IMG/VR virus record: IMGVR_UViG_3300021405_000002
Direction: 5' to 3' (one strand)
From: a virus
DNA length: 45,533 nucleotides
Positions 3,072 to 45,533 of the stretch are shown here, piece after piece; position 1 is the first letter of the stretch; each line of letters begins with the position of its first letter. The translations under genes and the position numbers were made by a program. A model generated the notes under the pieces. The model did no database searches, was not told the DNA's origin, and was given only the letters and a program-made list of their open reading frames with translations.

Positions 3072-3694
3072 CCGACTTTTCCGATTTCACAACCCAGATC
3101 GCGGAATGGGCGAATCGGCAAGACTGGTCACCGACGCTCGTGACTTCGTTCGTTCGCATGGCCGAGCAAAAGATAAACCAGGAGCTCCGTCACAATCGGA
3201 TGATCAAGAGCGCGATCGTCACCTCGACTGAGCGCTGCGCGACGATTCCCGACGATTGGCTCGAGTTCGATCTGGTCGAGATGGCGAGCGATCAGGTGCC
3301 AGGCGGCTGGAAACCGATTCGTTACAAGAGCCGCGACGAATTTATGAAGCTGCCCGACAAATGGGCGCTCAATCACTACACGATCGAGGGGCGGACGATC
3401 TTCTTTGGCGGCACGCCTGACGACGTCGAGGGCATTCAGTTTCAGATTTTTTATTTTGGCGAGGTGCCGGTCTTCTCCGACACGGTCGATTCCTGGGTCT
3501 ACACCAAGTATCCGAGCCTCTACCTCTCCGCCGCAATGATGCACGCCTACTTGCACGCGATCGGTGAAGAGGCGCAAGCGGCGAACGCGAAGCAATTCAC
3601 AGAAGACATGATCCAAAAGCTCAACGTCGAGCACAACCTCTCGAAGGCGAGCGGCTCGAGGCTCACGCGATCGCGGGTGAGGAGCTTTGGATGA
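3068..3694 (+). CDS. Putative head-to-tail adaptor (assigned by position, P22 gp4-like slot)
   Basis: The ATG at 3068 overlaps the upstream stop. 208 aa, the first non-lysis gene after the capsid and before the fibres. Assigned by synteny only. Confidence 0.4.
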   Translation: MTDFSDFTTQIAEWANRQDWSPTLVTSFVRMAEQKINQELRHNRMIKSAIVTSTERCATIPDDWLEFDLVEMASDQVPGGWKPIRYKSRDEFMKLPDKWALNHYTIEGRTIFFGGTPDDVEGIQFQIFYFGEVPVFSDTVDSWVYTKYPSLYLSAAMMHAYLHAIGEEAQAANAKQFTEDMIQKLNVEHNLSKASGSRLTRSRVRSFG

Positions 3695-5988
3695 ACCAGT
3701 GGGTCGATCCCAACGGCGACACGGTTCCTAACGACTGGGCCCCTGGTCTGCCGCCCAATGGCGAATGGCAGGACGGCTGTGGCTGCGAGCCGCCTGGCGG
3801 CGCGGCCAGCGTCAGCGGGATCACCATCACCGGCGTGCCGGCGACAGTAAGCTCATTGTACTGGCAGGTTTCGCTCAACGACGGCTCGAGTCCGCCGAAT
3901 TTTCAGATCAATCAACTCGACGGCAAGGGCGCTTTTGTCTCGACCGCGGCTGAGATCACGCCCTCGATGATTTATTTCGACTATCCGGTTCTGCTGAGCC
4001 GCGATCCAGTCGAGCCGATGGAGGCGGTGACTCTTGAATATCTCGAGGCGCACGAGACCGGTATTCCGGAGCCGCCTGACAACCAGACTTATGGGCGCGC
4101 TTTAGGGGCTTGGAACCTCGTGGTTCCGCAGTCGGGCGGCACTTACACCGGAGCGGTCTCGCTGGGCGCAGGCGGCGCAGTGACGTCGGGCGCGCTGCAG
4201 TTCTTTGGCTCGGCGGCGGCTTATTTCCCCGCGCTGGCGCAGTTGCAGATTGGCGATGGTCCCGCGGGTCAGGTGCCGACAGCGGACGGCAGCGGCAATC
4301 TGACTTGGACGACTCCGGTTACTGGCGGGCCTTACCTGCCCATTGCGGGCGGCACGGTCACCGGCAGCTTGACAGTCAATCAGGTTTTGACCGTTCAGGG
4401 CAGCAATTCGATGGTGCTGAACGCCCCAGTCACCGGCGGCAGTCAGCGCACCATTCTCGGCATGGCCGCTAACGTCGCTCGCTGGGGGTTGACGCTCGGC
4501 GACGGGACCGCTGAAGGCGCGAACAACGTTGGGGCGAATTTTAGCCTTGCGGGTTACGGCGTCACCGGCGCGTTTCTCGGCACTTGGCTTTCCATTGCGC
4601 GTGCGGACGGTTCGACGGTCTTTAACGGCTCGGGCGTCACCATTCAGGGCGGCTTGGCGGTTAACGGGCTTCTCGCGCTCGCTAGCCCGAACAATCTCGC
4701 GATCTATGGCGGGACGCCTGGTCAATTCTTGTCGACGAATGGCTCAGGCGTGCTCTCCTGGGCCAGCGCGGCTGGCGGCGGAGCGTCGATCACGGTTAGC
4801 GACACACCCCCTTCAGCGCCCTCCGTAGGGGCTCTGTGGTGGGACAGCGTCGGCGGGCAATTGTACGTCTATTATTCGGACGCCAACAGTTCACAGTGGG
4901 TTCCGGCCAGCAACGCTGCGAGCCTTCCGCCGCCCGCTTCGACGACGGTATTGGGCTCGGTCAAGGTTGACGGGACGTCGATCAAGGCGGCGGCGGACGG
5001 CACGATTTCGACCGTGCTGATCCCGATGGGCGACAACAGGCTCATCAACGGCGACATGCGGATCGACCAAAGGTGGAACGGCGCGGCCGAGGCGGGGGTC
5101 AATACCTATACCGTTGACCGCTGGTTTTATGGTGCAACTCAGGGGGCCAAGGGAACGTGGGGCCGTTCTAGCGCCAGTGGACTTAACCCATTTCCTTATT
5201 GTCTTTGCTTCACGTCATCGTCTGCGTATGCGGTCGTGGCTGGAGACAGTTTCAATTTTCAACAACGAATTGAAGCGGATCTTGTCAGCGACTTTGCATT
5301 CGGAACGCTGCAAGCGCAAGCAGTGACGCTGTCCTTTTGGGCGTATTCCAGTTTAACTGGTACATTCAGTGGAGCATTGGGCAATAATCCGGCCGGATCA
5401 ACCCGCTCATATCCTTTCACTTTCTCACTTCCAACAGCCAATACATGGACGAGGATTATTATTACTGTCCCTGGCGATACTAGCGGCGCTTGGACAATGT
5501 TGGGCAGTGGAGCAGGGTTTTTATTAACCTTTGATCTCGGCACGGGCGCGACTTATCGCGGTCCCGCCAACGCATGGGCAAGCGCGAATTACATCGGCGC
5601 GAATGGCGCGGTCAGCGTCGTCTCGACCAACGGCGCGACCTTCTACGTGACCGGCGTCAAGCTAGAGATCGGCTCGGTAGCAACGCCGTTCAATCGGCAG
5701 TCGCTCGCTAAGAGTATGGCGGATTGTCAGAGGTATTTCGCCAACTCTCAGGCAGTTCAGCTCAGTGCCTATGTCACGGCTGGGTTGACTTTTGGTCAAA
5801 GCGTAACCTTTCCAGTGACAATGCGAGTTGCTCCAACAATTACGCTTGTGGGGCCGACCTACTCCAATGCGAGTGGCGCGGCGGTTACAACAAATAGCCT
5901 TGGCGCTGTCACTGTCTATGCGACTGGAGCAGCTGCGGGGCTCGGATCGTTTACAATTTCTTCTTTGCAGTTGAGCGCGGAGCTTTGA
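3691..5988 (+). CDS. Tail fibre 1 (765 aa)
   Basis: Gly/Ser/Thr/Ala-rich fibre repeats. The C-terminal ~320 aa are paralogous to ORF 6016..7221 (GDNRLINGDMRIDQR...VKLEIGSVATPFNRQSLAKS.ADCQRY...LQLSAEL). Confidence 0.8.
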   Translation: MNQWVDPNGDTVPNDWAPGLPPNGEWQDGCGCEPPGGAASVSGITITGVPATVSSLYWQVSLNDGSSPPNFQINQLDGKGAFVSTAAEITPSMIYFDYPVLLSRDPVEPMEAVTLEYLEAHETGIPEPPDNQTYGRALGAWNLVVPQSGGTYTGAVSLGAGGAVTSGALQFFGSAAAYFPALAQLQIGDGPAGQVPTADGSGNLTWTTPVTGGPYLPIAGGTVTGSLTVNQVLTVQGSNSMVLNAPVTGGSQRTILGMAANVARWGLTLGDGTAEGANNVGANFSLAGYGVTGAFLGTWLSIARADGSTVFNGSGVTIQGGLAVNGLLALASPNNLAIYGGTPGQFLSTNGSGVLSWASAAGGGASITVSDTPPSAPSVGALWWDSVGGQLYVYYSDANSSQWVPASNAASLPPPASTTVLGSVKVDGTSIKAAADGTISTVLIPMGDNRLINGDMRIDQRWNGAAEAGVNTYTVDRWFYGATQGAKGTWGRSSASGLNPFPYCLCFTSSSAYAVVAGDSFNFQQRIEADLVSDFAFGTLQAQAVTLSFWAYSSLTGTFSGALGNNPAGSTRSYPFTFSLPTANTWTRIIITVPGDTSGAWTMLGSGAGFLLTFDLGTGATYRGPANAWASANYIGANGAVSVVSTNGATFYVTGVKLEIGSVATPFNRQSLAKSMADCQRYFANSQAVQLSAYVTAGLTFGQSVTFPVTMRVAPTITLVGPTYSNASGAAVTTNSLGAVTVYATGAAAGLGSFTISSLQLSAEL

Positions 5989-26579: not shown

Positions 26580-27121
26580 CACGGCACCGCAATCGCGTTC
26601 GAAGTGGCGTTGGCTGAGCCCGCAGCGTTGCTCGCGGTGACGCGACACGAAACGTTGGTTCCGCTGTCGGCCGCCTGGACGGTGTAGGTCGACTGCGTTG
26701 CGTCGGCGATCGGTGTGCCGCCGCGCAGCCAGGCATACGCATAGCTGGTTGGCGAATATTGCCAGATGCCTTGGGTGCAGGTGAGCGTCGTGGTGCCGGT
26801 GACCGCAGGCGCAGTGGTGTTCACCGGCGCGAGGTAGTCGCCCATGGCGTTGCTGATCGCGTCCGCCATGTCGGTGTTCGCGAGATTGCCGCCTTTGCCG
26901 ATATTGATGATCGCCAAAACTTCGTTGGTGAACGGCGTATTCGCCGCCTGGCCAGGGATCAATCCAGCCGGCGCGGTTTCCATCGTCGTGTCATGCGTCG
27001 TGGTGTCCGGATCGAGCAAAGCGACGATGGCGTTGAGCTCTGCCGCCTTATTCGGATACCATTTGTAATTCTTGGCGACGAGCTCGAGCTCGCCTTGGAA
27101 AGTCACGACATCGTAGGACAT
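26579..27121 (-). CDS. Protein with C-terminal Ig-like domain
   Basis: The ATG at 27121 shares one base with the upstream stop. The C-terminus LTCTQGIWQYSPTSYAYAWLRGGTPIADATQSTYTVQAADSGTNVSCRVTASNAAGS resembles a bacterial Ig-like repeat. Confidence 0.55.
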   Translation of the reverse strand: MSYDVVTFQGELELVAKNYKWYPNKAAELNAIVALLDPDTTTHDTTMETAPAGLIPGQAANTPFTNEVLAIINIGKGGNLANTDMADAISNAMGDYLAPVNTTAPAVTGTTTLTCTQGIWQYSPTSYAYAWLRGGTPIADATQSTYTVQAADSGTNVSCRVTASNAAGSANATSNAIAVP

Positions 27122-27624
27122 CAGTAGTTGTCTCCTCGAAGAAAGCCGCCTCGACCTGGCACGCAATTGCAATAGGGCCAGTTATTTTGCGCGCCGCTTT
27201 GCTCGCCAAGCGCCTGGCCTAGCCCTTGGAAGTTTAACTGTTGCTGCGCAAGCGCCCGATTTTGCTGCACCTGAGCTTGCTGCGCGTGAGCCTGACTTTG
27301 CAGCATCATGCGCTGGCGCATCTCCTCAGTGATCTGATGATACGGCAGTGGATTCATCGCCGCTTGCGCATGGTCTTGCTGACGCAAGCGATGCGCTGCA
27401 TCCGCGCGATCGCGCCAGGCGTGAGCGATCTCTCGCCAACCGTCGATATCCCCTCGGACGTGCTCAAGCTGGCGCTCGAGGTCATCGATGCGCGCCTTGA
27501 GCTCAGCGATCTCCGCGTTGGGCTTGATCGAAGAGAGAAGCTCCTTCGATGAGGAGTCGCTCGAAGTTTGCCGCTTCGCGACTGGGATCATCGCTAGGAG
27601 TGCTAGAGTCGACATCAAACCCAT
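27121..27624 (-). CDS. N-terminally anchored coiled-coil, Gln-rich protein
   Basis: Strong RBS GGAGGAGG 6 nt before the ATG at 27624. N-terminus MSTLALLAMIPVA, then AEIAELKARIDDLERQLEH. Confidence 0.6.
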   Translation of the reverse strand: MGLMSTLALLAMIPVAKRQTSSDSSSKELLSSIKPNAEIAELKARIDDLERQLEHVRGDIDGWREIAHAWRDRADAAHRLRQQDHAQAAMNPLPYHQITEEMRQRMMLQSQAHAQQAQVQQNRALAQQQLNFQGLGQALGEQSGAQNNWPYCNCVPGRGGFLRGDNY

Positions 27625-28222
27625 TTTTGTCCTCCTCCCGCCAGCTTATGCGTGACGCGGTGAACAGTCCATCCTGATTTTTCTCCGGAAAGAAACAAAA
27701 CCAGCCAAACGGCATCGCGCCTTGCTTCAGCTTTTTACCCTTCCAGCCAGGCCTGTGCATCATCGGCAGTCGTTCGACGCCGATAAAGACATGGTGCAAA
27801 TGTTGCATGATGTCGGAGCGGCCCGCGCCCTCAAGCGCCATCAGCCGCAGGAGCACATAGACCGGCAGACCAAGCTTGAGCCCGTGGCGAATGAAAGCGT
27901 CGGCCCAGCGGTAAGGCGGATTGGTCACAATCGCCTGGAGGTAGGTCACATTGCAGGATTTGAAAAAATCGATGCCGGTCTGGATCTCCGAATCGCGCCC
28001 TGCATAATCGACCAAGTCGTGGCTGATCACGCGCCAGCCGCCAGCCAGGAGCTCCCGCGAAATCGCGCCGCGGCCGGCGCACGGTTCGAAGAGTACGCGA
28101 TAAAGGTCGAGGGCTCCGGTGCGAATCAGCGCGCGCGTCGCTTCCGGCGGCGTTTCACGCAAATCGTAGGCGCGGTCTTTGAACTTGCCCTTAACCGCGC
28201 CCTGTCGCGATTTCGCTTTCAA
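27503..28222 (-). CDS. SAM-dependent DNA methyltransferase (NPPY; N6-adenine or N4-cytosine)
   Basis: FEPCAGRGAISREL (motif I) and IVTNPPY (motif IV). The proposed TTG start at 28222 overlaps the upstream TGA (TTGA). The ORF track allows extension to 28306. Confidence 0.75.
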   Translation of the reverse strand: MKAKSRQGAVKGKFKDRAYDLRETPPEATRALIRTGALDLYRVLFEPCAGRGAISRELLAGGWRVISHDLVDYAGRDSEIQTGIDFFKSCNVTYLQAIVTNPPYRWADAFIRHGLKLGLPVYVLLRLMALEGAGRSDIMQHLHHVFIGVERLPMMHRPGWKGKKLKQGAMPFGWFCFFPEKNQDGLFTASRISWREEDKNGFDVDSSTPSDDPSREAANFERLLIEGASLFDQAQRGDR

Positions 28223-28395
28223 TTGACTCGCCCCAGCGGTTCCTTGAGTTCCTCGAGGATGACCGCAACCAGCTTGATCAGCGCTTCTTCCGGCGGGCAC
28301 ACGCACGCAACCGGCTCATCCGCTTCGAAAATGACCAGGCTTAAGCGGCCGCAGTTCTCGCAGCGCGCGACCGACAGTCCGTTGCCTTCAATCAT
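28219..28395 (-). CDS. 58-aa Cys-cluster (zinc-ribbon-like) protein, absent from the ORF track
   Basis: Hand translation: MIEGNGLSVARCENCGRLSLVIFEADEPVACVCPPEEALIKLVAVILEELKEPLGRVN. ATGA overlap upstream and TTGA downstream. Confidence 0.5.
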   Translation of the reverse strand: MIEGNGLSVARCENCGRLSLVIFEADEPVACVCPPEEALIKLVAVILEELKEPLGRVN

Positions 28396-28508
28396 TTGCA
28401 GCGCTCAATCACGTAAATGATTACGCCTAGAATTACGCAAAACTCGCCGATAGACCAGCTAAGCTGATCAAGATTCGTCGTCCAAGTCGGCGGCGAATGC
28501 TCAATCAT
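28392..28508 (-). CDS. 38-aa single-TM micro-protein, absent from the ORF track
   Basis: Hand translation: MIEHSPPTWTTNLDQLSWSIGEFCVILGVIIYVIERCK. ATGA overlaps at both ends. Confidence 0.4.
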   Translation of the reverse strand: MIEHSPPTWTTNLDQLSWSIGEFCVILGVIIYVIERCK

Positions 28509-29230
28509 GCCGCCATCCTATCGACAAAGGCTTGGGCTTCGCGCCAGTCGTTTTGATTGCGCCCTTGCCGCCTGGCTGAATAACTCCACGCCATGCTGTC
28601 AGCCGATTCGAGGCAATCGCGGATCGCTTTGACGCTAAGACTTGTGGTCTTGAGGCCAAACCCGTGTAATCGAAGATCAGGACGCGCATCGAGGATAGCC
28701 TCTAGAACAGCCAGAACAGCCCCAGGATTGCCGTTGCGCTTACAGACGCTGCCGACGCCCACATAAGCGCCCTTGGCCAGTCTTGAGCCATAAGCGAGGA
28801 CGTGAGCTCCGTAATCGGGGGGCGCGTAGCCTTGCAGAACCGGCATAATGGCGATCCCGCCAGTATCGAGGGCGACGAGCGCGTCGTAACGCTCGATCGT
28901 CAACCGCTGATGCTCAGCAATCGTCAAACCTGTCTTGGCCAGCATCGCCGGCTCGCACATGTAATCCTGAGCGACCGCGGTGATGAGATTAGGCGCAGCC
29001 CATTTGCGAATCATCTCAGCATAAACCTCGACCGGCTCGGGATAGCCGCCATGCTTAGCAATCGTGGTGAATGCGCCCGAATCCATGATCCAGGGCTGGT
29101 CAGTAAACTTGCTCTTGCGCCCCTTGGGTCCGATTAGCGTTGAGACACTGACGAACACCGGGCCCAGGTGCTTGGCGTCGGAAGGATGGTGGACGCCGAC
29201 ATAGAATTTCACTTGCCGCGGCCTTTCCAC
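28505..29230 (-). CDS. dpdA: DpdA-like DNA transglycosylase (TGT superfamily)
   Basis: Motifs MDSGAF, GVGSVCKR, LHGFGLK and DSMAWS, in the order I recall for phage/bacterial DpdA. An alternative GTG start at 29212 forms a GTGA overlap with the primase stop. Confidence 0.6.
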   Translation of the reverse strand: MERPRQVKFYVGVHHPSDAKHLGPVFVSVSTLIGPKGRKSKFTDQPWIMDSGAFTTIAKHGGYPEPVEVYAEMIRKWAAPNLITAVAQDYMCEPAMLAKTGLTIAEHQRLTIERYDALVALDTGGIAIMPVLQGYAPPDYGAHVLAYGSRLAKGAYVGVGSVCKRNGNPGAVLAVLEAILDARPDLRLHGFGLKTTSLSVKAIRDCLESADSMAWSYSARRQGRNQNDWREAQAFVDRMAA

Positions 29231-31770
29231 GGTTCCATCGCATCGCCCTCGCGCCAGTCGTTGGGCATGTCGTCATTGGGCTCGAGCTCCCAATGCGAGC
29301 GCAGCGGAACGCCGAGAACCTGGCTGAATAAGCGTTGTAACGCGCCGATCTTGTACTTGAACAAATACTCGCCGTTGGCGAGACTTTCTAATAAGCCGGC
29401 ATGAGTGTAGAGCGCCAAAACGGCATCGGCCAAAACAGGTTGCCGAAATCCCATATCCTTGCATGCTTTTCTGACACGCTGCGTGATGTGAAACGAGCGG
29501 AAAGGCATAGCAATATCGAACCCGCTGTGAATCGTGCCGTTTTCGAGAATTTCTTTGGCGACGAGTTGAGTCGGCGTCAGTTGCTCCGCCGCAACGTCGG
29601 CGTCGCGCACCGCAGAATGAGTCAAGTCTTCCACTTGTGCGATATCGTCAGGCGCGCAGTCAATCAAAAGCTTGACGTAAGCCTGGCGCACGTCATCGCG
29701 CTTCAAAAAGGCGGCGTAATCCCGGTAGAACGGTTTCGCCTCTCGGTTCATACGGTCTTGGAATTCGCCAGGCAAAAGGCCTTCGCTCGTTGCGGTGATT
29801 GACGTCACCTGGAAAATTCCGCGATCTGCGCCCCTCGAAAGACCAGGATTGGGCTCATTCGATGTGAAGGCCAATCGAGCAAAGGTTATGTGCGTTGTTG
29901 GATTTTGGTTTTTAAATTCGCCAGAAATTTTGGTCGAACGGATCAGGTCTTTTATCGTTTCAATGACTTCCGACTTCGAGACAACTTCGTCGTGATTGAC
30001 CCAAAGTCTATCCACGTAATTTGGAATGTAGAACTGGCTCTCAAACGCTTTCATGCTCCCTTTGCCGGCATAATTGCCAAACACAGCTTCCGCAAAATCC
30101 TGGCAGAGAAAAGTCTTCCCGGTGCTCTGATCGCCGGTGCAGACAAGCGCGACTTGTTGTTTTTTGCCGGGATGTTTCAGCGTCCAGCCAAAATGCGCCT
30201 TAATCCATTCCATACGCCCTTTGTGGTTCTTGGTGACAAGGCTTAGCATGTGATCAAGCTTGTCGATGCACTCAGCCTTGAGCGCCTCATCGATTGTCTT
30301 CGCCGGCAGAATGTAAAGGCCAGCCCATTTATTGAAGATCAGGCGCGAATGCGGCGGCGCGTAATCATTGTCAGGAACGATTACGCCTTGGCGAGTCACA
30401 CGAACAATGGAGCCAGGCGGATAATCGGGATGAATCTCAACGTCGGTGACATCCTGACGGAGCTTCGACTTGATGAAGATTGGAAACGCTTCGACTGGCT
30501 TTTTCTTGGTTTGAATCAAGTCGGGCGCATGGCGAAGCGTCAAGCTCTCGCGAGTGAAGATGAATTGCGCCTGGCCTTCGCGAAAGGCTTGGCGGTCTAT
30601 AAATGCGCCCTCGCCCAGATGGAACAGATACCGCTCCGCGAAGTCTTCAAGCAGGGTTGAATCTGCGCCGACGTTGAGAACCGTGCGCAGCGCCTTGCGC
30701 GCTTCGTCGCCAAAGAAATTGCCGATTCCGGTCCAGCCCATGACGTCGAGGCGCGCAGGATCGGCGTCGAGGCGCTTGCGAGCGAATTGGAACATCTCCA
30801 GGCATTCCTCGCGATCCGCCGGCTTGCCGCGCTGCTGACAAATGTGTTCGAGCAAAAGCTCAGCGTGCGAGGGATCCGCGATGATCGCGCGCGAGGCGCG
30901 CGAGAACACGACATTGGCGTTGATCGCCTGGCCGTCCCGGACGATGCGCGCCATGAGCTCGGAGAACGCGCGCCGCTTCGAATAGTCCTCCCAGGCTTTC
31001 TGGCTGACGATGTTGAGAATCGACGCGAACGCTGCAGCGCGGACAATCTGAAAGAACTCGACCGGCGCAGCCCCTGTTCGCCAGCGTGCAGCGGGCCCCT
31101 GGCCGCTCTCCGCGCGCCAGGTGATCAGATCATAGTCGACGCCGTTCTCGTGCCACAGGAGGCTTCCTGGCGCGATCGTCGTGACCACATGCGCGTTCGA
31201 GCCTTTCTTGATCGCCGGCGCGTAATTGATGGCGATGCCGCGGCGCGTGTCCTCGAGCGTGAACGCCTTGGGCTTGAAGCCGGAATATTCCTCGTCCAGG
31301 CGTTTCGCTTCGTCGTCGCGGAGCTTGAACAGGATCGACGTCGCAATCGGCTTCGAAGCGCGGCCAAACGCATAGCGCGACGTGATCCCAAGCCTGGCGC
31401 ATGCGGCGAAGAAACACTCGTTGATCGATTGATCCGGACCAAAGAAGCGAACTTCGACGACGCCGTTCTGCAGATAGGCGAGCGCGTTGAGCTTCTGCTT
31501 GCGGTCGTTGTCAATCCAAACGCGAAGATCGTCGTCGGTCTGATGAAGCTTCTCGTCCTCGTCGGGCGGCAGCGGCTTATCCGCGCGCGGCAAGCAATAA
31601 TGAACCGGAGCCATGAGTTGACGCGCCGCGAGCACGGTGAGCTCGCGCTGATCCATGACGGTTTTCTTCTGATCAGCCGGTAAATCCAACGTCCAATCGA
31701 CGTCGGGCACGAGTTGCACGACAGAACCATCGGGCTTAGGCTGTTTAGGCATGGCCCAGCCTCGGTCCAT
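29209..31770 (-). CDS. Primase / SF3 (D5/P4-type) replicative helicase
   Basis: 853 aa. Walker A TGDQSTGKTF and Walker B RLWVNHDEV lie in the C-terminal half, with a large N-terminal domain. An alternative ATG at 31752 has GAGG upstream. Confidence 0.7.
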   Translation of the reverse strand: MDRGWAMPKQPKPDGSVVQLVPDVDWTLDLPADQKKTVMDQRELTVLAARQLMAPVHYCLPRADKPLPPDEDEKLHQTDDDLRVWIDNDRKQKLNALAYLQNGVVEVRFFGPDQSINECFFAACARLGITSRYAFGRASKPIATSILFKLRDDEAKRLDEEYSGFKPKAFTLEDTRRGIAINYAPAIKKGSNAHVVTTIAPGSLLWHENGVDYDLITWRAESGQGPAARWRTGAAPVEFFQIVRAAAFASILNIVSQKAWEDYSKRRAFSELMARIVRDGQAINANVVFSRASRAIIADPSHAELLLEHICQQRGKPADREECLEMFQFARKRLDADPARLDVMGWTGIGNFFGDEARKALRTVLNVGADSTLLEDFAERYLFHLGEGAFIDRQAFREGQAQFIFTRESLTLRHAPDLIQTKKKPVEAFPIFIKSKLRQDVTDVEIHPDYPPGSIVRVTRQGVIVPDNDYAPPHSRLIFNKWAGLYILPAKTIDEALKAECIDKLDHMLSLVTKNHKGRMEWIKAHFGWTLKHPGKKQQVALVCTGDQSTGKTFLCQDFAEAVFGNYAGKGSMKAFESQFYIPNYVDRLWVNHDEVVSKSEVIETIKDLIRSTKISGEFKNQNPTTHITFARLAFTSNEPNPGLSRGADRGIFQVTSITATSEGLLPGEFQDRMNREAKPFYRDYAAFLKRDDVRQAYVKLLIDCAPDDIAQVEDLTHSAVRDADVAAEQLTPTQLVAKEILENGTIHSGFDIAMPFRSFHITQRVRKACKDMGFRQPVLADAVLALYTHAGLLESLANGEYLFKYKIGALQRLFSQVLGVPLRSHWELEPNDDMPNDWREGDAMEPWKGRGK

Positions 31771-37008: not shown

Positions 37009-37097
37009 ATTTAAACACATCCGCCTTGGTCTAATCGCTATTGCGGAAACGCAGAAGGCCCCCCTCGAGGTTTTCTGATTTGGGGCCCCGGGCGCAC

Positions 37098-37126
37098 TTA
37101 AGTCATGCCTCGGAATGTGTTAAACT
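37098..37126 (+). promoter_or_regulatory. Possible rightward promoter (TTAAGT-17 nt-TAAACT), 7 nt before the ATG at 37134
   Basis: Hexamers read from the sequence. The spacing implies a leaderless or near-leaderless transcript. Confidence 0.3.
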
Positions 37127-37133
37127 ATACCAC

Positions 37134-37523
37134 ATGACAAACTGTGAATACTGCGAACGGATCTTTAATGCCAGTCTTCACGAGTTGTTTTGCAGTAATC
37201 GCTGCTGTACGGCTTTTTCGCGTGAGAGGGATCTTGCGGAGAGGTTGGAGGCGTTATCAATTCCGGAGCCAAATAGCGGCTGCAAATTGTGGTTGGGCCA
37301 ATTAAATTCGAGGGGTTACGGGCAACTTCGCATCAGGAGAAAGTTTCGAAGAGTTCATCAAGTTGCTTACGAGCTTGCGAAGGGGCCTATTCCGCCAGGC
37401 AAGATGATTTGTCATCGCTGTGATGTACAGATCTGTATAGAGGCTAATCATCTTTACGCTGGAACAGCGAAGACCAACTTTGACGACATGGTGCGCAGGG
37501 GGCGCTATAAACCGCCTCCATGA
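37134..37523 (+). CDS. HNH endonuclease (HNH_3-like)
   Basis: CKLWLGQLNSRGYGQL...RRVHQVAYEL...ICHRCDVQICIEANHLYAGTAKTNFDD. Confidence 0.75.
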   Translation: MTNCEYCERIFNASLHELFCSNRCCTAFSRERDLAERLEALSIPEPNSGCKLWLGQLNSRGYGQLRIRRKFRRVHQVAYELAKGPIPPGKMICHRCDVQICIEANHLYAGTAKTNFDDMVRRGRYKPPP

Positions 37524-39394: not shown

Positions 39395-39601
39395 ATGACC
39401 ACGCATGGGATTCGCGCCGATCGAGTGACGCTGAGCGTCAGTCCGGAACAGCAGGAATGGCTCAACGGTTTGGCGACGCGGTACGGCGTTTCGGTCAGCG
39501 ACATTTTGCGTCGGCTGATCGACGAGACGCGGGGCGCGTATTTGACGCCGCGCGACGCACGCTCGTCACGGGAGACGAGTAGTCAACGGGAAGCCGCCTA
39601 A
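39395..39601 (+). CDS. Ribbon-helix-helix (CopG/Arc-like) DNA-binding protein
   Basis: RVTLSVSPEQQEWLNGLATRYGVSVSDILRRLIDE fits a beta-strand plus two helices. Confidence 0.55.
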   Translation: MTTHGIRADRVTLSVSPEQQEWLNGLATRYGVSVSDILRRLIDETRGAYLTPRDARSSRETSSQREAA

Positions 39602-39619
39602 CCAAACTGGAGGACGCGC

Positions 39620-40312
39620 ATGGGTCAAGGATTTTACGCCTACATTCAGCCGATCGACGACGCCGCGCATCCCGATCAGGGGCTTCCTGGCGGCGGGCGT
39701 CCGGGTCATCGTCCTGGTCGTCCCGGCCGGCCGATCGATCCTGGTTTTGGCTGGGGCGGCGGCGAGCGTCCCGGTCATGGGCTTCCGCGGCCGCCGCACA
39801 CTTGGCCGCGCCCGCCTGGCGGCGGCCTTCCGGTCGATCCCGAATGGGGGATTCCGGAGGGCGGGCACTTGCATCCGGATCATGGTCTGCCGATCCATCC
39901 GATCGATCCGGAGCATCCCGATCAAGGCTTGCCGGAAGTTCCCGGCGTCGAGCCGCTGCCGCCCGATCCGCCCCCGGGCACGGTGTGGCCGCCTTTGCCG
40001 CCCGACGTTCCCGCCGGCCGCGCGCTCGCTTTGGTGGCGATCGAGGGCGTCGGTTATCGCTACGTGGTGATCGAGATTGGCGAGCGGCCGGTCGATCCGG
40101 ATTACGGCGTCGAGGAGGGAACCCCGGAGCATCCGGACGTGCAGCCGCCGCGCCCTGGCGTTCCGCCGCGGCCCGGTCAGGGGCTTCCGGGTCAGCGTCC
40201 GCCGGTCGCCGGTCAGCCGCTGCCGCCGCAGCGTCCCGGTCAACCGCCGCAGCCTGGCCAGGGCTTGCCGCAACCGCCGACCGCCCAGCCCAAGCCCGGG
40301 CAGCGGCGGTAA
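39620..40312 (+). CDS. Pro/Gly-rich repeat protein (HPDQGLP / xGLP repeats)
   Basis: GGAGG lies 7 nt before the ATG. 230 aa with one ordered-looking core (ALALVAIEGVGYRYVVIEIGERP). Confidence 0.6.
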   Translation: MGQGFYAYIQPIDDAAHPDQGLPGGGRPGHRPGRPGRPIDPGFGWGGGERPGHGLPRPPHTWPRPPGGGLPVDPEWGIPEGGHLHPDHGLPIHPIDPEHPDQGLPEVPGVEPLPPDPPPGTVWPPLPPDVPAGRALALVAIEGVGYRYVVIEIGERPVDPDYGVEEGTPEHPDVQPPRPGVPPRPGQGLPGQRPPVAGQPLPPQRPGQPPQPGQGLPQPPTAQPKPGQRR

Positions 40313-40424
40313 GAGATCCGGACCTGGTGGCTCGACGCGCGTACCAGGCGAGGATGGCGCTAAAGGCAAGCATCCGGCCCAGGGAGGCTGAAAGGCCTCC
40401 CACACTCTAACCGGGGGTTTTCCC

Positions 40425-41072
40425 ATGAATAAATTGGTGCTTTCAACCGCCTTGCTCGCCGCGATCGGCGCAACGCCGGCGCATGCGACGCTGCAGATCG
40501 AGGTCTTCGACAACGGCTCGCTGATCGACAACATCACTGGCGTCACCACGGGCGCGGCTTCGCTCACCGCCAGCGACGCCAATTTCGCCAACATCACCAT
40601 CGCCGCGCAGGGCTCTCCGATCTTGCCGAATGCGGACCTATCGAGCGTGACGCTCGACGCCAGCGCGGCGGCGGGCTTTACCGGCTCGCACACGCTGACC
40701 GTCGATGTGATCCAGAGCGCGATTTTCGGCACCGGAAACACGCTCTCGACGTTCACGGTCAACGGCTTGACCAACGATCCGGGTCCGACGATCGAATCGA
40801 CGTTCGCCGGCGGCGGTCTGCTGGCTACGCACACCTTTCCGGCGGCGTTGCTGGACGGCTCGGCTGGGCCGTTCTCGGCGGCGACGGGCGCGTTCACGAC
40901 GGACGAGACGCAATTCGCCGTTGACTTCACTGCGCCGCGGCAGTCGTTTGGCGGCTCGATCCAGTTGACGACTGGCGTTCCGGAATCTTCGACTTGGGTG
41001 ATGATGGGGCTAGGTTTCGCCGCGCTTGGCTTCGCCGGTTGGCGTCGTCGGGGCGCGCGTCTCGCGTTCTAG
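40425..41072 (+). CDS. Secreted PEP-CTERM-anchored protein
   Basis: Signal peptide MNKLVLSTALLAAIGATPAHA. C-terminus VPESSTWVMMGLGFAALGFAGWRRRGA gives the PEP-like motif, TM helix and Arg cluster. Confidence 0.75.
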   Translation: MNKLVLSTALLAAIGATPAHATLQIEVFDNGSLIDNITGVTTGAASLTASDANFANITIAAQGSPILPNADLSSVTLDASAAAGFTGSHTLTVDVIQSAIFGTGNTLSTFTVNGLTNDPGPTIESTFAGGGLLATHTFPAALLDGSAGPFSAATGAFTTDETQFAVDFTAPRQSFGGSIQLTTGVPESSTWVMMGLGFAALGFAGWRRRGARLAF

Positions 41073-41462: not shown

Positions 41463-41825
41463 GTGGACATCCTCGATCGTCATGCCGACAAGTGGGAGCC
41501 TCTGACTGAGGTTGGATGCTACCTGTGGACGGGTGCCGTCGCGGGCGCTCCGGTTTTGCGTCCGCAAGTCACGATCGGGAGCATGGTCGATAGGACGCGC
41601 AGAACCGTGTATGTTTCACGGTTAGTTTGCGAAGAATTTCACGGACCGCCTCCGACGCCGCGGCATCAGGCTTTGCACAATACGCCGAATGGCTGCATTG
41701 GCGGCCTTTGTGTTGCGCCCCATCATTTGCGTTGGGGAACTAGTCGAGAAAATCACGCTGACGTTCATCCTCAAGCGCGCTCGGATCGCTCAAGGCGATC
41801 TTGGGTAAGTCGACGTCTGGTATAG
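41463..41825 (+). CDS. HNH endonuclease (second copy, HNH_3-like)
   Basis: GCYLWTGAV...RLVCEEFHG...ALHNTPNGCIGGLCVAPHHLRWGTSRENHAD. GTG start. Confidence 0.65.
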   Translation: MDILDRHADKWEPLTEVGCYLWTGAVAGAPVLRPQVTIGSMVDRTRRTVYVSRLVCEEFHGPPPTPRHQALHNTPNGCIGGLCVAPHHLRWGTSRENHADVHPQARSDRSRRSWVSRRLV

Positions 41826-44293
41826 ATATAACAAAAATGGAACGTATTTTCGCGTCTTTCAAGGATAGCTCAAGTCTAAACACCGGTTCATACGACCCTG
41901 GTGATCCGGAGTCCTATGAGCAATTCTTGAACGCGATGATTAAAGATGCTCGTGACTATGAAGGAATGGTATTAGCAGCTAACAGGGACTACGCGCAGAA
42001 GTATTATTACGGACTTTTACCTACACTGTACCCTGATGATAACCCATGGTCAGATACCACTATCGTTCAAGACCCAAACGCTACTTATGACCAATTCAAT
42101 AAGGATCAGGAAGACGCAGCAAATCGATCATCGTTCGTTTCAACCGATGTTCGTGATGCAATTATGCTTATGTTGCCGTCTTTAATTAGATTATTTGGTG
42201 CAAATGAAAGTCCAATCGAGCTTGTTCCAAGAAGCGCCGCTGAAAGCGACATGGCTCAACAGGCAACGCAATATGTAAACTATACATTTTGGAATGATAA
42301 CCCTGGTTTTCTCATTTTGTACGGTGCCTTTAAAGACGCAATGACGGTAAAAACCGGTTTTGTTAAGTGGTGGACCGACGATCGCAAGGAGATGCGTCGG
42401 AAGACCTTCATGGGCATCACAGCCCAGCAAATTCAACAGCTTCTGATCGAAGACCCAACCGCTAAGTTGATCGAGGTGGGCAATCCGACGCCAGGCGTCG
42501 CGGCTCCGCCGCCGCCAGCTGCGCCGCCGCCTCCACCAGGTCCGCCAGGAATGGCTCCAGGCGGCCCACAGATGGCTCAGGGCGGGCCTGGGCCAATTCC
42601 CGGTCCTCCACAGCCTCCTGGGGCTCCCCCGCCTCCAGGGGCCGTTTCTGGCCCGCCTGGAGGCCAGCCGCCCCTGCCGCCTGGCCTCGCCGGCGCGATC
42701 GCGCCGCCGGCCTTCGACCATGTGGTGATCGAATACCAGGTGGCGAAGCCGATTATCCGCATCACCGGCGTGCCTCCGGAGGAGATGCGGCTCGATCGTT
42801 ATGCGCGAACTTTTCGGGAAAGCCGGATCGTCGGGCATGAACGCGTCGCGCCGATCGATGAGCTCACCGCGATGGGCTACCAACGCGAAATGCTTCTCGA
42901 CTACGTGCAATCGCAGTCGATCGCGGAGTTCACGACCGAGCCGCAATTGCGCAATCCTGGCCGGATCATGTCGACCCGGGTTGGCGACGGGGTGATGTAC
43001 GGCGAGTGGTACATCCGCGCCGATCACGACGGCGACGGCTTTCCGGAACTCCGCCACGTCATCACGATGGGCGAGAACGCCACGCTGATTTCGGACGAGC
43101 CGGCGAACCGGATCAAGTTCGCCCTGTTTTCCGTAGACCCGATTAGCCACACGATCGTCGGGGATTCCATCGCGGATCTGACGATGGACATTCAGCGGAT
43201 CAAAACCAACCTCTCGCGCGCCATTCTCGACTCGGCCGCCGAGAGCATCAACCCGAAAACCGTCATCAACGAGCTCACGACCAACGTCGACGACGCTTTG
43301 AACGACGACTTAGGCGCGGTCATTCGGACGCGTGGGGATCCCAACGCCGCGGTCGCTTTCAACAACATCCCGTTTCTTGGTCAGGCGGCGATGCCAATCA
43401 TCGAATACCTGAACGACGTGCTCCAGCGTCGTACTGGGTTGTCCGATGCGGCAAAGGGCCTCGACCCGAAAGCACTTCAATCGTCCACGATGGTCGGCGT
43501 TGAAGCGATAATCAATGGGCAGCAAGAGCGCACTGAGCTTGTCGCGCGCGTACTCGCTGAGACGGGTTTCAAGGATTTGTTCAGCGGCTTGTTTAACGAG
43601 GTCTGTGAGAATCCCTCGCAGCAACGGACTCTGAAGGTCAACGGCAACTGGGTAGATTACGACACCTCGACGTTCGACGCCTCGATGGGGGTGGAAGTCA
43701 ACCCAACCCTCGGCAAAGGTTCTGACACCGTCAGACTGATGACATTGCAACAGATCAAGACAGATCAGCAAACGATCGTAGCGCAAATGGGCCTCAACAA
43801 CCCTGTTTGTGGCCTACAAGAGATGATGAATACGCAAACTGACATGTTGGCAATCGCCAACATTAAAAATGTGAACAGATATTTCAAGATGCCCAATCCG
43901 GTGCAGCTGCAAGCGATGCTCAGCGCGCCGAAAGAGCCCGACGCGATGACCTTGGCGGCCCAAGCCCAGTACCAAAAGGTGAAAGCCGACGCCGCGGAAG
44001 CCTTGGGCAATCAAAACCTCAAGAAAGCGCAGCAAGACCAAGACAATGCGCTCGCACAAGCGCAATTGCGCGAAAAGACACTCTACGACCAGGCGAAGAT
44101 TCAACTCGAGGCTGACGCGCTGCATGCTCAGCATGTCCAGGCGCTCGGCAAGATGGCGAGCGACATGTTCAAGACCGCGCACGACGGCGCGATCGACGTG
44201 CATCAGACGCACGTTCAGGCGGCCAGTGACCAGGCGGTCGCGGACACCCAGGCCGAAGCGGCCGCACAGCAACCGCAGGGAGGCGGAGCGTGA
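41801..44293 (+). CDS. Portal protein
   Basis: About 820 aa upstream of scaffold and capsid. FVSTDVRDAIMLMLPSLIRLF and QATQYVNYTFW motifs, plus a long Q/A-rich helical C-terminus (barrel-like). The start is either the TTG at 41801 or the ATG at 41837. Confidence 0.8.
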   Translation: MGKSTSGIDITKMERIFASFKDSSSLNTGSYDPGDPESYEQFLNAMIKDARDYEGMVLAANRDYAQKYYYGLLPTLYPDDNPWSDTTIVQDPNATYDQFNKDQEDAANRSSFVSTDVRDAIMLMLPSLIRLFGANESPIELVPRSAAESDMAQQATQYVNYTFWNDNPGFLILYGAFKDAMTVKTGFVKWWTDDRKEMRRKTFMGITAQQIQQLLIEDPTAKLIEVGNPTPGVAAPPPPAAPPPPPGPPGMAPGGPQMAQGGPGPIPGPPQPPGAPPPPGAVSGPPGGQPPLPPGLAGAIAPPAFDHVVIEYQVAKPIIRITGVPPEEMRLDRYARTFRESRIVGHERVAPIDELTAMGYQREMLLDYVQSQSIAEFTTEPQLRNPGRIMSTRVGDGVMYGEWYIRADHDGDGFPELRHVITMGENATLISDEPANRIKFALFSVDPISHTIVGDSIADLTMDIQRIKTNLSRAILDSAAESINPKTVINELTTNVDDALNDDLGAVIRTRGDPNAAVAFNNIPFLGQAAMPIIEYLNDVLQRRTGLSDAAKGLDPKALQSSTMVGVEAIINGQQERTELVARVLAETGFKDLFSGLFNEVCENPSQQRTLKVNGNWVDYDTSTFDASMGVEVNPTLGKGSDTVRLMTLQQIKTDQQTIVAQMGLNNPVCGLQEMMNTQTDMLAIANIKNVNRYFKMPNPVQLQAMLSAPKEPDAMTLAAQAQYQKVKADAAEALGNQNLKKAQQDQDNALAQAQLREKTLYDQAKIQLEADALHAQHVQALGKMASDMFKTAHDGAIDVHQTHVQAASDQAVADTQAEAAAQQPQGGGA

Positions 44294-44523
44294 ACGACAA
44301 GCGGGATTTTACTTTTGGTGAGCGTGCAGTTGGAATTACGTTTAATCCGAGCGCGTCTGGCGAGGTTGACGTGCTTAAAACGCGTGCCGGGAACTTTATC
44401 GACGCGTGCAATGATTTGCGCGAGGCGGCGACGAACCCCGAAGTCAAGCGCATGTACTCGATCGCGATCACCGAAGCGCAGACGGCGCAGATGTGGGCGG
44501 TGAAGGCGGCGACGTGGCGATGA
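44290..44523 (+). CDS. Small conserved phage protein of unknown function
   Basis: 77 aa with ATGA overlap to the portal gene. C-terminal helix AITEAQTAQMWAVKAAT resembles a motif common in small phage proteins. Confidence 0.55.
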   Translation: MNDKRDFTFGERAVGITFNPSASGEVDVLKTRAGNFIDACNDLREAATNPEVKRMYSIAITEAQTAQMWAVKAATWR

Positions 44524-44825: not shown

Positions 44826-45533
44826 TAGCGCCGCGCAAGCGTTTGAGCGCGCGATCGATCCGGCTCAGACGCAGAGCGAGGGAACGCCGCGCGCGCCCGC
44901 GCCGCGGGATACGAGCGGCCGTTTCGCCCAGGTCGCGGAGAAGCCCGAACCATTTCTCGAGATCCGGACGATCGAAGGCGATCCGGAGACGGGAGACACG
45001 AACGACGCGGGAGACGATCCTCGCCTCCGTGCTCGAGAGAGGGAGATAGCCGATGGTCGGTTTGACGAGAGGGCGCACCGCGAAAGTCAATCACGCGCCC
45101 GACAAGCGCCCACCGAAACTGAAAGGCAGAGTGGCGAACGACGTAGCCCCGACGCCCCGGTCAGCGATGATGCCGCCGCCGACGATGGACACTTGCGAGC
45201 CGATGATGAGTCGCAAGACGCCGAAGCCGACGCCGCCGGCGATGAAGAGAGTGAAGACGGCGATCTCGAAAACGCCCAGTTCGAAATCACGGTCGACGGC
45301 GAGCCTCAAACCGTATCGCTAGGCGAGCTCCGTGACGGCTACATTCGGACGGCGACGTTCCATTCGCGGCTGAACAAGGTCAACGAGCACAAGCAAGCGG
45401 TCGACCAGGAGAACGCGCGCGTCGCTCAGATGCGCGATATTTACATCCAAGGACTGACCAACCTCGATCAGGATCTCCAGGCGCTCGTGCCGCCTGAGCC
45501 AGATTGGGACAAGGAATACGAAAAGGATCCGCT
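44809..45533 (+). CDS. Scaffolding protein, 5' part (continues at 3..617 after the junction)
   Basis: Hand translation from the ATG at 44809 (MPEGLDSAAQAFERAID...) stays open to the window end and joins the frame of 24..617. It is not in the ORF track because no stop lies inside the window end. Confidence 0.6.
   Translation, partial: MPEGLDSAAQAFERAIDPAQTQSEGTPRAPAPRDTSGRFAQVAEKPEPFLEIRTIEGDPETGDTNDAGDDPRLRAREREIADGRFDERAHRESQSRARQAPTETERQSGERRSPDAPVSDDAAADDGHLRADDESQDAEADAAGDEESEDGDLENAQFEITVDGEPQTVSLGELRDGYIRTATFHSRLNKVNEHKQAVDQENARVAQMRDIYIQGLTNLDQDLQALVPPEPDWDKEYEKDP
45407..45533. repeat. Terminal overlap, identical to 1-127
   Basis: Direct comparison. Confidence 0.95.

Follow-up and report, generated by a model that had tools for sequence, protein, structure and literature searches.

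A DpdA gene and a linked membrane micro-protein gene in a variable slot between the primase and adenine methyltransferase genes of a soil podophage

The region between the primase and the DNA methyltransferase (MTase) genes of the phage genome analysed here is best explained, and probably correctly so, as a variable 'moron' slot, in which a mobile DpdA+p38 cassette and an independent small gene, p58, lie in front of an m6A MTase belonging to the phage backbone. The locus reveals no new kind of system: DpdA and the orphan MTase are an already known kind of anti-restriction equipment, and p38 is a small, undescribed micro-protein linked to DpdA. Whether the DNA of a phage can be cut by restriction enzymes and CRISPR nucleases depends on its hypermodification, and DpdA is the hallmark enzyme of modification with 7-deazaguanines. 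Under this explanation, a compact DpdA would be passed from phage to phage in a cassette of two genes, the other one encoding a conserved membrane micro-protein, and would land in a slot whose contents are readily exchanged and which adjoins the gene of an orphan CcrM-like adenine methyltransferase.

The window, i.e., the whole stretch of 45,533 nucleotides that was analysed, is a 45.4-kb genome with a 127-bp terminal direct repeat, which is consistent with the genome being complete, as the initial annotation had considered it. The phage backbone is that of an SU10/Pam3-like podophage of soil metagenomes. No tRNA genes were found in the genome, and cultured phages gave no match when 20 kb of its DNA were searched against them at near identity. 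The primase gene and the four genes previously annotated next to it were all found in place on the minus strand, as follows:

29209..31770, minus strand: primase/helicase-like replication protein (853 aa, DUF5906; PF19263, E 2.7e-10; phrog_1156 DNA primase, E 5e-14)
28505..29212, minus strand: DpdA (235 aa; longest ORF to 29230), predicted TGT-superfamily DNA guanine transglycosylase of the Orion-type 'singleton' clade
28396..29212, minus strand: DpdA+p38 cassette (817 nt), an indel with respect to the closest backbone relative, L181
28392..28508, minus strand: p38, 38-aa single-pass membrane micro-protein, supported by homologues after DpdA and by dN/dS
28219..28395, minus strand: p58 (58 aa, CxxC and VCPP), with copies in relatives independent of DpdA
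27503..28222, minus strand: orphan gamma-type N6-adenine DNA methyltransferase (239 aa), assigned by phrog_799, hhalign and a predicted M.TaqI-like fold

The variable slot and the DpdA-p38 cassette

In the close relatives, the space from primase to MTase contains either nothing, p58 only, DpdA only, DpdA+p38 or p58+DpdA+p38. The primase forms the upstream flank of the variable slot and is 66-82% identical in loci L181, L100, L092, L182 and L184, and the MTase follows the primase in all relatives, with or without DpdA, being a phage backbone gene. L180, L182 and L183 carry primase and MTase only, L181 carries primase-p58-MTase without DpdA or p38, and L100 carries primase-DpdA-MTase with neither micro-ORF. 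L184 encodes the closest relative of DpdA (91% identical, with 67% for the primase and 71% for the MTase) and has DpdA+p38+MTase without p58, and in L092 p58 is found upstream of DpdA.

The L181 sequence reads ...GGCCGCGGCAAATGATTGAAGGC..., the primase stop being fused to the p58 start, and in the window DpdA+p38 sits between the same two sequences, yielding a clean insertion or deletion of 817 nt with the junctions GGCAA/GTGA and TGCAA/ATGA. The slot between the primase and the backbone MTase would hold two independent insertions, DpdA+p38 on the one hand and p58 on the other. DpdA+p38 is also found in loci that have no MTase of the window's family (L006, L008, L185, L186, L269 and L270).

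The homologues of p38 are 37-40 aa long and are located directly 3' of DpdA with the same 4-nt ATGA overlap in 10 distinct loci. The DpdA-p38 pair occurs in at least four different gene contexts, among them the primase-MTase slot, an early region upstream of a 28-32%-identical primase, a position flanked by terminase and capsid genes (L269) and an operon of its own (L270). In L085, L087 and L186, the p38 gene had been passed over by the gene callers. In a neighbour-joining tree, the p38-positive DpdAs make up 10 of the 13 assessable leaves of one DpdA subclade. The p38 gene is under purifying selection, with dN/dS values of 0-0.24 and, between L006 and L185, 10 synonymous and 0 non-synonymous changes. 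Only 13 clusters of p38 were found in 5.8 billion proteins; its profile found no copy away from DpdA in 268 loci, it has no Pfam, PHROG or NCBIfam match, and no description of a coupled 38-aa membrane peptide was found in the DpdA literature searched. The DpdA-p38 pairing is the only specific, conserved linkage left standing in this region, and p38 appears to be translationally coupled to DpdA and co-inherited with it.

IGEFCVILGVIIYVI forms the hydrophobic core of p38 (Kyte-Doolittle mean 2.57 over 15 residues). Basic residues follow the helix, and they suggest a periplasmic location for the conserved N-terminal WTTNLDQLxW motif, on the far side of the membrane from a cytoplasmic DpdA. p38 sits where other phages carry the gene of a YhhQ-type preQ0 transporter, and our best guess, a speculative one, is that p38 may act at the membrane in support of DpdA, either in the supply or salvage of the base or in the localisation of the enzyme. 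p38 is not recognisable as a relative or fragment of YhhQ/Vut_1, since its profile scored at most 1.4 bits against four phage YhhQ-like proteins and blastp gave E values of 0.9 or higher. p38 and a YhhQ-like gene were never found after the same DpdA, but with 0 overlaps against 0.6 expected the numbers are too few for mutual exclusivity to be readable. A 37-aa ORF after DpdA in L067, which looked p38-like by eye, was not recovered by the p38 profile and was left out.

There is a substantial chance, though one short of even, that p38 is instead a hitch-hiking membrane moron, e.g., a superinfection-exclusion or lysis-timing peptide, that is transcribed together with DpdA and has no role in DNA modification. 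Small membrane morons are commonplace in phages, and the predicted topology would place the conserved motif outside the cytoplasm. Moreover, L100, L099 and L101, which fall inside the p38 clade, have lost p38 and kept DpdA, thus p38 is dispensable, and around 190 of the 205 DpdA-family loci lack it. However, if p38 were a hitch-hiker, it would be surprising to see the exact ATGA junction and the immediate adjacency to DpdA preserved across at least four contexts, and p38 absent everywhere else.

The DpdA enzyme and the supply of its base

The 241-aa ORF spanning 28505-29230 contains the WIMDSGAF, GVGSVCKR, LHGFGLK and ADSMAWS motifs in the order in which they had been annotated. It is the second GTG of this ORF, at 29212, that overlaps the primase stop as GTGA, and DpdA more likely starts there and has 235 rather than 241 aa. 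Public assemblies also record the gene with 235 aa (P0001), and the Pfam alignment likewise begins at this start. DpdA matches PF23859 with an E value of 5.1e-42 (144.3 bits, for a cut-off of 27; profile positions 3-224 of 291) and phrog_1279 with an E value of 5.8e-62.

PDB searches by sequence alone, with DpdA and the MTase or with profiles of the two, returned nothing beyond spurious repeat proteins and matches below threshold, and structure prediction and Foldseek were needed; none of the five module proteins is covered by an NCBIfam model. The AF2 model of DpdA (pLDDT 89.9, pTM 0.87) matched the TGT structure 7a3x (E 4e-7) and the DpdA of Salmonella Montevideo, 7ui4 (E 9e-7, TMq 0.65, 17% identity), among 169 PDB matches at E<=0.001, at the top of which are TGTs of bacteria and archaea, DpdA 7ui4 and Cap10. 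The modelled fold thus agrees with the initial assignment, and the protein is, as predicted from this model, a DpdA/TGT-superfamily enzyme with a TGT-type TIM barrel.

The residues D44 (MDSGAF), D83 (AQDY), H137 and D205 (ADSMAWS) are invariant in 31 homologues, and their spacings resemble those of Asp95, Asp130, His181 and Asp256 of the S. Montevideo DpdA (PMC10164549), D83 and H137 being equated with Asp130 and His181 by spacing only. Both enzymes would share the TGT-type barrel, an Asp as general acid/base, an Asp as nucleophile, and Asp/His for base recognition. In contrast, the S. Montevideo enzyme has 413 aa, and the 235-aa protein of the window lacks the DpdA-specific insertions and the CxCxxCx22H structural zinc site, which has been described as a conserved feature of TGTs and bacterial DpdAs, C86 and C157 being its only invariant Cys residues. 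The chain ends 30 residues past D205, and the zinc site is likewise missing in gp25 of Sinorhizobium phage phiLM21. This compact, zinc-less DpdA keeps the general acid/base Asp of DSGAF, the Asp of the QD motif, the invariant His and the nucleophile Asp of xDS.

Judged by sequence comparison, DpdA clusters with the singleton DpdA Orion gp20 (DQ398046 gene 20), with 39.8% identity over residues 3-216 (214 residues; E 3e-32). The closest relative in a cultured phage is that of phiLM21 (57% identity), and the prophage relatives are at most 65% identical and scattered across many phyla. The DpdA1 enzymes of phages Rosebush (gp2), 9g and CAjan have homologous catalytic motifs and perform a post-replicative exchange of guanine for 7-deazaguanine; hhalign aligned the DSGAF and xDS motifs of DpdA with those of Rosebush gp2 with 91% probability, the sequences being 28% identical over 159 aa. 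These phages carry the genes of QueC/D/E and FolE alongside that of DpdA, and 25-32% of their G is modified, whereas the window encodes none of these enzymes. In Rosebush, 28% of G is replaced by dPreQ0 (PMC6884629).

The absence of recognisable precursor-synthesis genes, already observed in the initial annotation, was confirmed with a Pfam scan of 65 ORFs, in which no QueC, QueD, QueE, FolE or QueF was detected, and with tblastn searches of the window using Rosebush QueC, QueD, QueE and FolE and phage YhhQ-like proteins (best E 0.014). No copy of YhhQ was found in the 45.4-kb genome. The same Pfam scan detected no ParB-like family (DpdB), no DpdC or DpdD-K and no DUF3109 anywhere in the genome, and the ParB-like gp1 of Rosebush had no match in the window, which thus differs from the bacterial Dpd restriction-modification system (dpdA-K) in lacking DpdB, DpdC and DpdD-K. 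A DpdA without precursor genes is not unusual: of the groups into which Hutinet et al. (2019) (PMC6884629) divided the DpdA phages, the one with this gene content is the largest. With a complete genome that lacks FolE, QueD, QueE and QueC, the window belongs to this 'DpdA-only' group 3, like Orion (gp20) and Salmonella phage 7-11, for which the same reliance on host or imported preQ0 has been proposed. It differs from them in being an SU10/Pam3-like podophage, in its coupled 38-aa peptide and in the primase-MTase slot.

Most likely, DpdA would act on replicated phage DNA and swap guanine for a 7-deazaguanine, either preQ0 or a base closely derived from it, and this base would have to be made or imported by the host, because the phage carries neither synthesis nor transporter genes. 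The most similar arrangement is gp25-gp26-gp27 of phiLM21, where DpdA is followed by a membrane protein and by a small NPPY/F m6A MTase beside replication genes. However, gp26 is a 175-aa transporter of the Vut_1/YhhQ family without similarity to the 38-aa p38, and phiLM21 is a temperate, siphovirus-like phage that lacks p58, which is present in the window. A YhhQ/Vut_1 gene is found right after DpdA in 12 of 205 loci (phiLM21 and 11 others), and the preQ0-specific transporter belongs to this family, which ties the compact DpdA clade to the salvage of 7-deazaguanine.

A different reading, which we consider unlikely, is that inserting preQ0 is not what the compact Orion-type DpdA does, and that the enzyme uses another base, acts on another nucleic acid (e.g., tRNA) or works like a glycosylase, in which case the lack of precursor genes would leave no gap to be filled. 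Orion, whose DpdA belongs to the same family and is the closest relative examined by experiment, has no detectable 7-deazaguanine in its DNA and its host has no preQ0 pathway (PMC6884629), and around 400 mycobacteriophage records retain the Orion-type gene. Hutinet et al. (2019) (PMC6884629) left open a possible functional divergence of the singleton clusters, the window's enzyme has no zinc subdomain, and it is distant from the proven DpdAs by the identities given above. However, all members of the family retain the catalytic Asp and His residues, YhhQ/Vut_1-type genes follow DpdA in the 12 loci, and phage 7-11, also DpdA-only, carries low-level dADG, ~0.02% (PMC6884629). Since the DNA of Orion is unmodified and that of 7-11 contains so little dADG, the output of the singleton DpdA clade is uncertain.

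It is more doubtful still that, as a fuller version of the guess made above for p38, this protein is an undescribed accessory of phage 7-deazaguanine modification, horizontally co-transferred with the zinc-less DpdA, that obtains or channels a host or environmental base or tethers DpdA at the membrane. If this were true, p38 would fill both the role and the gene position that the YhhQ-type transporter has in other phages, and it could help to explain how the 'singleton DpdA' enzymes work, a large clade that is activity-less so far.

p58, gene junctions and the adenine methyltransferase

The p58 gene is real and under purifying selection like p38 (pN 0.084 versus pS 0.35), so that both micro-ORFs proposed initially are genes. 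The description of p58 as a Cys-cluster protein was overstated, since, of the four Cys in the window copy, the relatives conserve only those of the CxxC pair and the one in VCPP. Ten representatives were found in 1.84 billion proteins, and Pfam has no model that matches p58, p38 or the MTase. In L181, p58 is 83% identical and is located between primase and MTase; the copy upstream of DpdA in L092 is a 74-aa homologue; and it is missing in L184, L100, L180 and L182. p58 is independent of DpdA, and it may be regarded as a small CxxC protein that comes and goes without it.

The overlaps between stop and start codons are present as annotated (GTGA for primase/DpdA, ATGA for DpdA/p38, ATGA for p38/p58 and TTGA for p58/MTase), the last one corresponding to a TTG start of the MTase at 28222 that gives 239 aa. 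In an approximate gene list of the whole genome, an NTGA overlap is possible at 18 of 51 same-strand junctions; these overlaps are the general packing style of the genome and nothing special to the DpdA block. A scan of 26-33 kb found no promoter- or terminator-like site above chance inside the four-gene block. The initial proposal, in which the four primase-linked genes would be translated together as partners in fixed stoichiometry and make up a minimal dual DNA-modification complex, with the two micro-proteins as accessory subunits, is very improbable: it agrees with the four NTGA junctions, with the uninterrupted block and with the selection acting on all four genes, but the relatives mix these genes freely, the MTase following the primase alone, with p58, with DpdA or with DpdA+p38, p58 being relocated in L092, and DpdA+p38 occurring without such an MTase, and the overlaps are found genome-wide. 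Among the relatives that retain the neighbouring genes, p58 and, in L100, also p38 can be missing, which the initial annotation had itself named as a ground for rejecting its proposal. The apparent operon of partners becomes a mosaic of independent anti-restriction genes.

The MTase contains EPCAGRG followed by TNPPY (gamma order), and its residues E46, P47, G50, G52, N101, P102 and P103 are invariant in 29 homologues. It matches phrog_799 (E 1e-36) and, by hhalign, PhiLM21_p027 (probability 98.3%, E 1.6e-14, 165 columns), and the top Foldseek match of its AF2 model is M.TaqI 2np6 (E 9e-7), PacII, a type I M subunit and CamA being also at the top. These data bear out its annotation as an NPPY DNA methyltransferase, and by homology to PhiLM21_p027 it is a putative N6-adenine DNA methyltransferase. 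It was also considered as DpdM and rejected, since DpdM is defined as a DUF3109/YkgJ preQ1 methyltransferase (PMC10516641) with CxxxCxxCC metal motifs, whereas the MTase is a Rossmann-type NPPY enzyme.

The MTase resembles the PhiLM21_p027-type, CcrM-like GANTC enzymes of alphaproteobacterial phages in its size (~180-240 aa), in its SAM motif followed by NPPY/F/W, in its position beside the replication module and in its profile-level homology, but it is only ~30% identical to them and no Pfam or NCBIfam model matches it. PhiLM21_p027 is a small phage m6A enzyme whose GANTC specificity was established by experiment (PMC5537653), and by analogy across this ~30% identity the MTase would methylate adenine on its own, probably at GANTC. 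DpdA and the MTase together would then provide two independent layers of protection against restriction. GANTC is depleted in the genome, with 126 sites versus 228 +/- 14 expected.

A compact DpdA in a phage without precursor genes

The locus is encoded on the minus strand and contains the following genes:

29209-31770, minus, primase-like DUF5906 protein
28505-29230, minus, DpdA-like ORF
28392-28508, minus, 38-aa ORF (product p38)
28219-28395, minus, 58-aa ORF (product p58)
27503-28306, minus, NPPY DNA methyltransferase ORF (product MTase)

The DpdA motifs and all four NTGA overlaps described in the initial annotation were found in the sequence. The GTGA overlap with the primase gene uses the second GTG of DpdA (29212), yielding a 235-aa product that is also the one in public gene calls (P0001) and that begins where the Pfam alignment begins. 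The TTGA overlap yields a 239-aa MTase, identical to the recorded public call. Downstream, the public calls for identical contigs (L084 and others) place a 103-aa plus-strand ORF (27241-27552) where the minus strand has a 167-aa coiled-coil ORF (27121-27624). The 167-aa ORF is probably the real gene; relatives conserve its protein sequence (L181 70%, others 35-54%). As drawn, it shares ~120 nt with the 3' part of the MTase gene.

The 241-aa ORF matches Pfam PF23859 'DpdA' (144 bits, E 5e-42) and phrog_1279 (E 6e-62), and its family is large, since more than 6,900 proteins were matched among 8,000 candidates scored. A confident AlphaFold2 model built from 31 homologues (pLDDT 89.9) was compared with the PDB using Foldseek, which returned bacterial and archaeal tRNA-guanine transglycosylases (TGTs), Cap10 and the DNA preQ0 insertase DpdA, whose structure has been solved (7ui4, E 9e-7, TMq 0.65). 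The proposed membership of the DpdA/TGT superfamily is thus upheld by the fold. Residues D44 (MDSGAF), D83, H137 and D205 (ADSMAWS) do not vary across the alignment, and their spacing parallels that of the S. Montevideo DpdA residues Asp95 (general acid/base), Asp130, His181 and Asp256 (nucleophile; PMC10164549). These data establish both the fold and the catalytic residues.

The C-terminus lies only 30 residues past D205 and there are only two invariant cysteines; therefore, the protein lacks the CxCxxCx22H zinc site, a conserved feature of TGTs and bacterial DpdA. A profile-profile comparison with Rosebush gp2 lines up the DSGAF and xDS motifs (91% probability); Rosebush carries dPreQ0 in place of 28% of G (PMC6884629). 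In Mycobacterium phage Rosebush (gp1-gp2; L188, 1-1946), a ParB-like gene precedes a full-length DpdA (385 aa), followed by QueC, QueD, QueE and FolE; gp2 itself gives no Pfam DpdA match at E<=0.01. This ParB-like gene is reminiscent of bacterial DpdB, the ParB-fold ATPase needed by bacterial DpdA.

As anticipated in the initial annotation, no precursor-synthesis genes were detected: Pfam found no FolE, QueD, QueE, QueC or QueF in the 65 ORFs of the window, and a six-frame tblastn of the window with the Rosebush enzymes and phage YhhQ-like proteins gave no match. In a translated search of 50,697 phage records, DpdA matched 407, every one below 60% identity. Mycobacteriophages account for 398 of them, including Orion gene 20 (39.8% identity, E 3e-32), and the remainder include Sinorhizobium phage phiLM21 (57%), a Rhizobium phage and Microcystis phages. 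Orion exemplifies the 'DpdA-only' group, the largest in the survey of Hutinet et al. 2019 (76 of 182 viruses), whose members were proposed to use preQ0 from the host or imported (PMC6884629). A DpdA without precursor genes is, hence, a category already described in that survey.

A variable slot between primase and methyltransferase

Relatives were gathered from IMG/VR, JGI metagenomes, ENA/Logan assemblies and GTDB genomes, and the segment between the primase and MTase genes was compared.

Slot content in the window and related loci (identities are to the window)
Window: primase-DpdA-p38-p58-MTase; reference
L184: primase-DpdA-p38-MTase, without p58; DpdA 91%
L092-L095: primase-p58 homologue (74 aa)-DpdA-p38-MTase; DpdA 83%
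L100: primase-GTGA-DpdA-ATGA-MTase, both micro-ORFs absent; DpdA ~80%, primase 74%, MTase 74%
L181: primase-ATGA-p58-TTGA-MTase, without DpdA and p38; primase 82%, MTase 82%, p58 83%
L180, L182/L183: primase-MTase; MTase 80-89%

The segment is a variable slot of modular content, and the co-translated, stoichiometric four-gene module postulated initially was not borne out, as the relatives combine DpdA, p38 and p58 with MTase in varied ways. Therefore, MTase belongs to the phage backbone, and p58 occurs independently of DpdA. The window differs from L181, its closest backbone, by a clean 817-nt insertion or deletion of DpdA and p38 between GGCAA|GTGA and TGCAA|ATGA. In L184 the flanks are less similar than DpdA (primase 67%, MTase 71%), which points to cassette exchange. 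The stop-start overlaps have no special meaning, because they are present in any gene combination and an NTGA overlap is possible at 18 of the 51 same-strand junctions genome-wide.

The distribution of p58 goes with the primase-MTase junction, not with DpdA. This protein is under purifying selection (pN 0.084 versus pS 0.35, window versus L181), comes from a very small family (1.84 billion proteins yielded ten representatives), and has a conserved signature, EGDGL..RCExCG.LS plus VCPP, with only three conserved cysteines.

MTase has no match in Pfam or NCBIfam; it matches phrog_799, and the EPxAGxG and NPP motifs are invariant among 518 homologues. Its AF2 model (pLDDT 78.6) best matches M.TaqI, PacII, a type I M subunit and CamA, and its profile matches PhiLM21_p027 (98.3% probability, E 1.6e-14). 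The latter, for which GANTC methylation was established by experiment, is among the small NPPY/F/W m6A methyltransferases adjoining replication genes in alphaproteobacterial phages (PMC5537653). GANTC, the CcrM/HinfI site, is strongly depleted in the whole window, with 126 sites versus 228 +/- 14 expected from dinucleotide-preserving shuffles, every one of which exceeded 126. This depletion is consistent with a GANTC-related lifestyle, an alphaproteobacterial-type host and the homology to GANTC methyltransferases; it does not prove the specificity of MTase itself, for which GANTC is a putative target. A role of MTase as DpdM was rejected, since DpdM is a DUF3109 metalloprotein (PMC10516641).

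The DpdA-p38 cassette and its possible role

In ten distinct loci (window, L184, L092, L006/L185, L103, L008, L186, L078, L269 and L270/271), DpdA is followed by a p38 homologue of 37-40 aa, and the p38 start codon and DpdA stop codon overlap as ATGA. These loci span at least four gene contexts, including a stand-alone operon (L270). Away from DpdA, p38 was found neither by its profile in 268 loci nor by a pattern scan of IMG/VR. Neighbour joining of 202 DpdA sequences places p38-positive members on 10 of the 13 assessable leaves in one subclade, with three losses (L100, L099, L101) and one p38-positive outlier (L269). This linkage is the part of the proposed module that survives; the observation made initially was confirmed and its interpretation partly supported. 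A DpdA-only phage with an orphan CcrM-like m6A methyltransferase is a system of known kind, in which the DpdA-p38 cassette is the one new feature.

In L269, a 45.3-kb contig of another SU10-like phage, the pair (3264-4117) is embedded in the structural module, with the terminase large subunit gene on one side and the capsid genes on the other, a placement showing that it moves freely.

The p38 proteins share an invariant WTTNLDQLxW motif followed by a hydrophobic helix and basic residues, and resemble no annotated protein. Only 13 clusters were found in a collection of 5.8 billion proteins. Comparison of p38 codons gives dN/dS of 0-0.24; L006 and L185, for example, differ by 10 synonymous and 0 non-synonymous changes. 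Gene callers missed an intact 37-38-aa p38 ORF on L085, L087 and L186; therefore, protein databases under-count the family and surveys need six-frame searches.

The family placements of DpdA and MTase are firm, and we propose that, once the phage DNA has been replicated, DpdA would swap its guanine for a 7-deazaguanine supplied by the host, and that MTase would independently methylate adenine, probably in GANTC, both modifications serving restriction evasion. Speculatively, p38 might act at the membrane in support of DpdA, by supplying the base or localising the enzyme. The main rival to preQ0 insertion is that Orion-type compact enzymes have another function, because the sole member tested left no trace in DNA: 7-deazaguanine was not detectable in Orion. 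Salmonella phage 7-11, by contrast, contained ~0.02% dADG (PMC6884629).

On the side of 7-deazaguanine salvage, a membrane protein of the Vut_1/YhhQ family, to which the preQ0 transporter belongs, is encoded directly 3' of compact DpdA in 12 of 205 non-redundant loci, among them:

L179 (phiLM21), 4771-5298, Vut_1/YhhQ-family gene (gp26) after DpdA
L043, L048, L049, L107, L137, L139, L200, L225, L255 and L266, likewise

These neighbours link the 'singleton' DpdA clade, whose activity is putative, to that salvage. The annotation of phiLM21 gp26 says only hypothetical. No locus has both p38 and a Vut_1/YhhQ gene after DpdA, an absence that is statistically not meaningful, and p38 as a relative of YhhQ/Vut_1 was rejected, as no relationship was found. 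The second rival sees p38 as a membrane moron that hitch-hikes with DpdA.

The phage backbone

An exact 127-bp direct repeat at 1-127 and 45407-45533 leaves 45,406 bp of unique length; therefore, the 45,533-bp window is a complete, circularly assembled genome of ~45.4 kb. Pfam matches comprise an SU10-type portal, major capsid and adaptor, Pam3 gp33/gp34-like proteins, an SNF2 helicase, lysis enzymes and two HNH endonucleases. The phage is an SU10/Pam3-like podophage of 56-67% G+C, for which a DNA-level search of cultured phages gave no close relative.

Just 3' of the portal gene, a 77-aa protein (44290-44523, plus) matches the Acb2/Tad1 hairpin domain PF24729 over the cut-off (E 2.3e-9). This candidate sponge for cyclic nucleotides would counter CBASS or Thoeris and, hence, represent a putative second counter-defence gene. 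A 454-aa ORF (39566-40930, minus; GC3 0.82) stands amid genes of the plus strand, in the interval from the likely terminase to the portal, within a G+C peak at 39.0-41.0 kb (0.67 versus ~0.59 elsewhere). It has no Pfam match; either a spurious high-GC ORF or a foreign insertion could account for it. The two HNH_3 endonuclease genes flank the packaging region, one (37041-37523, plus) 5' of the probable terminase and the other (41463-41825, plus; score under the Pfam cut-off) 5' of the portal.
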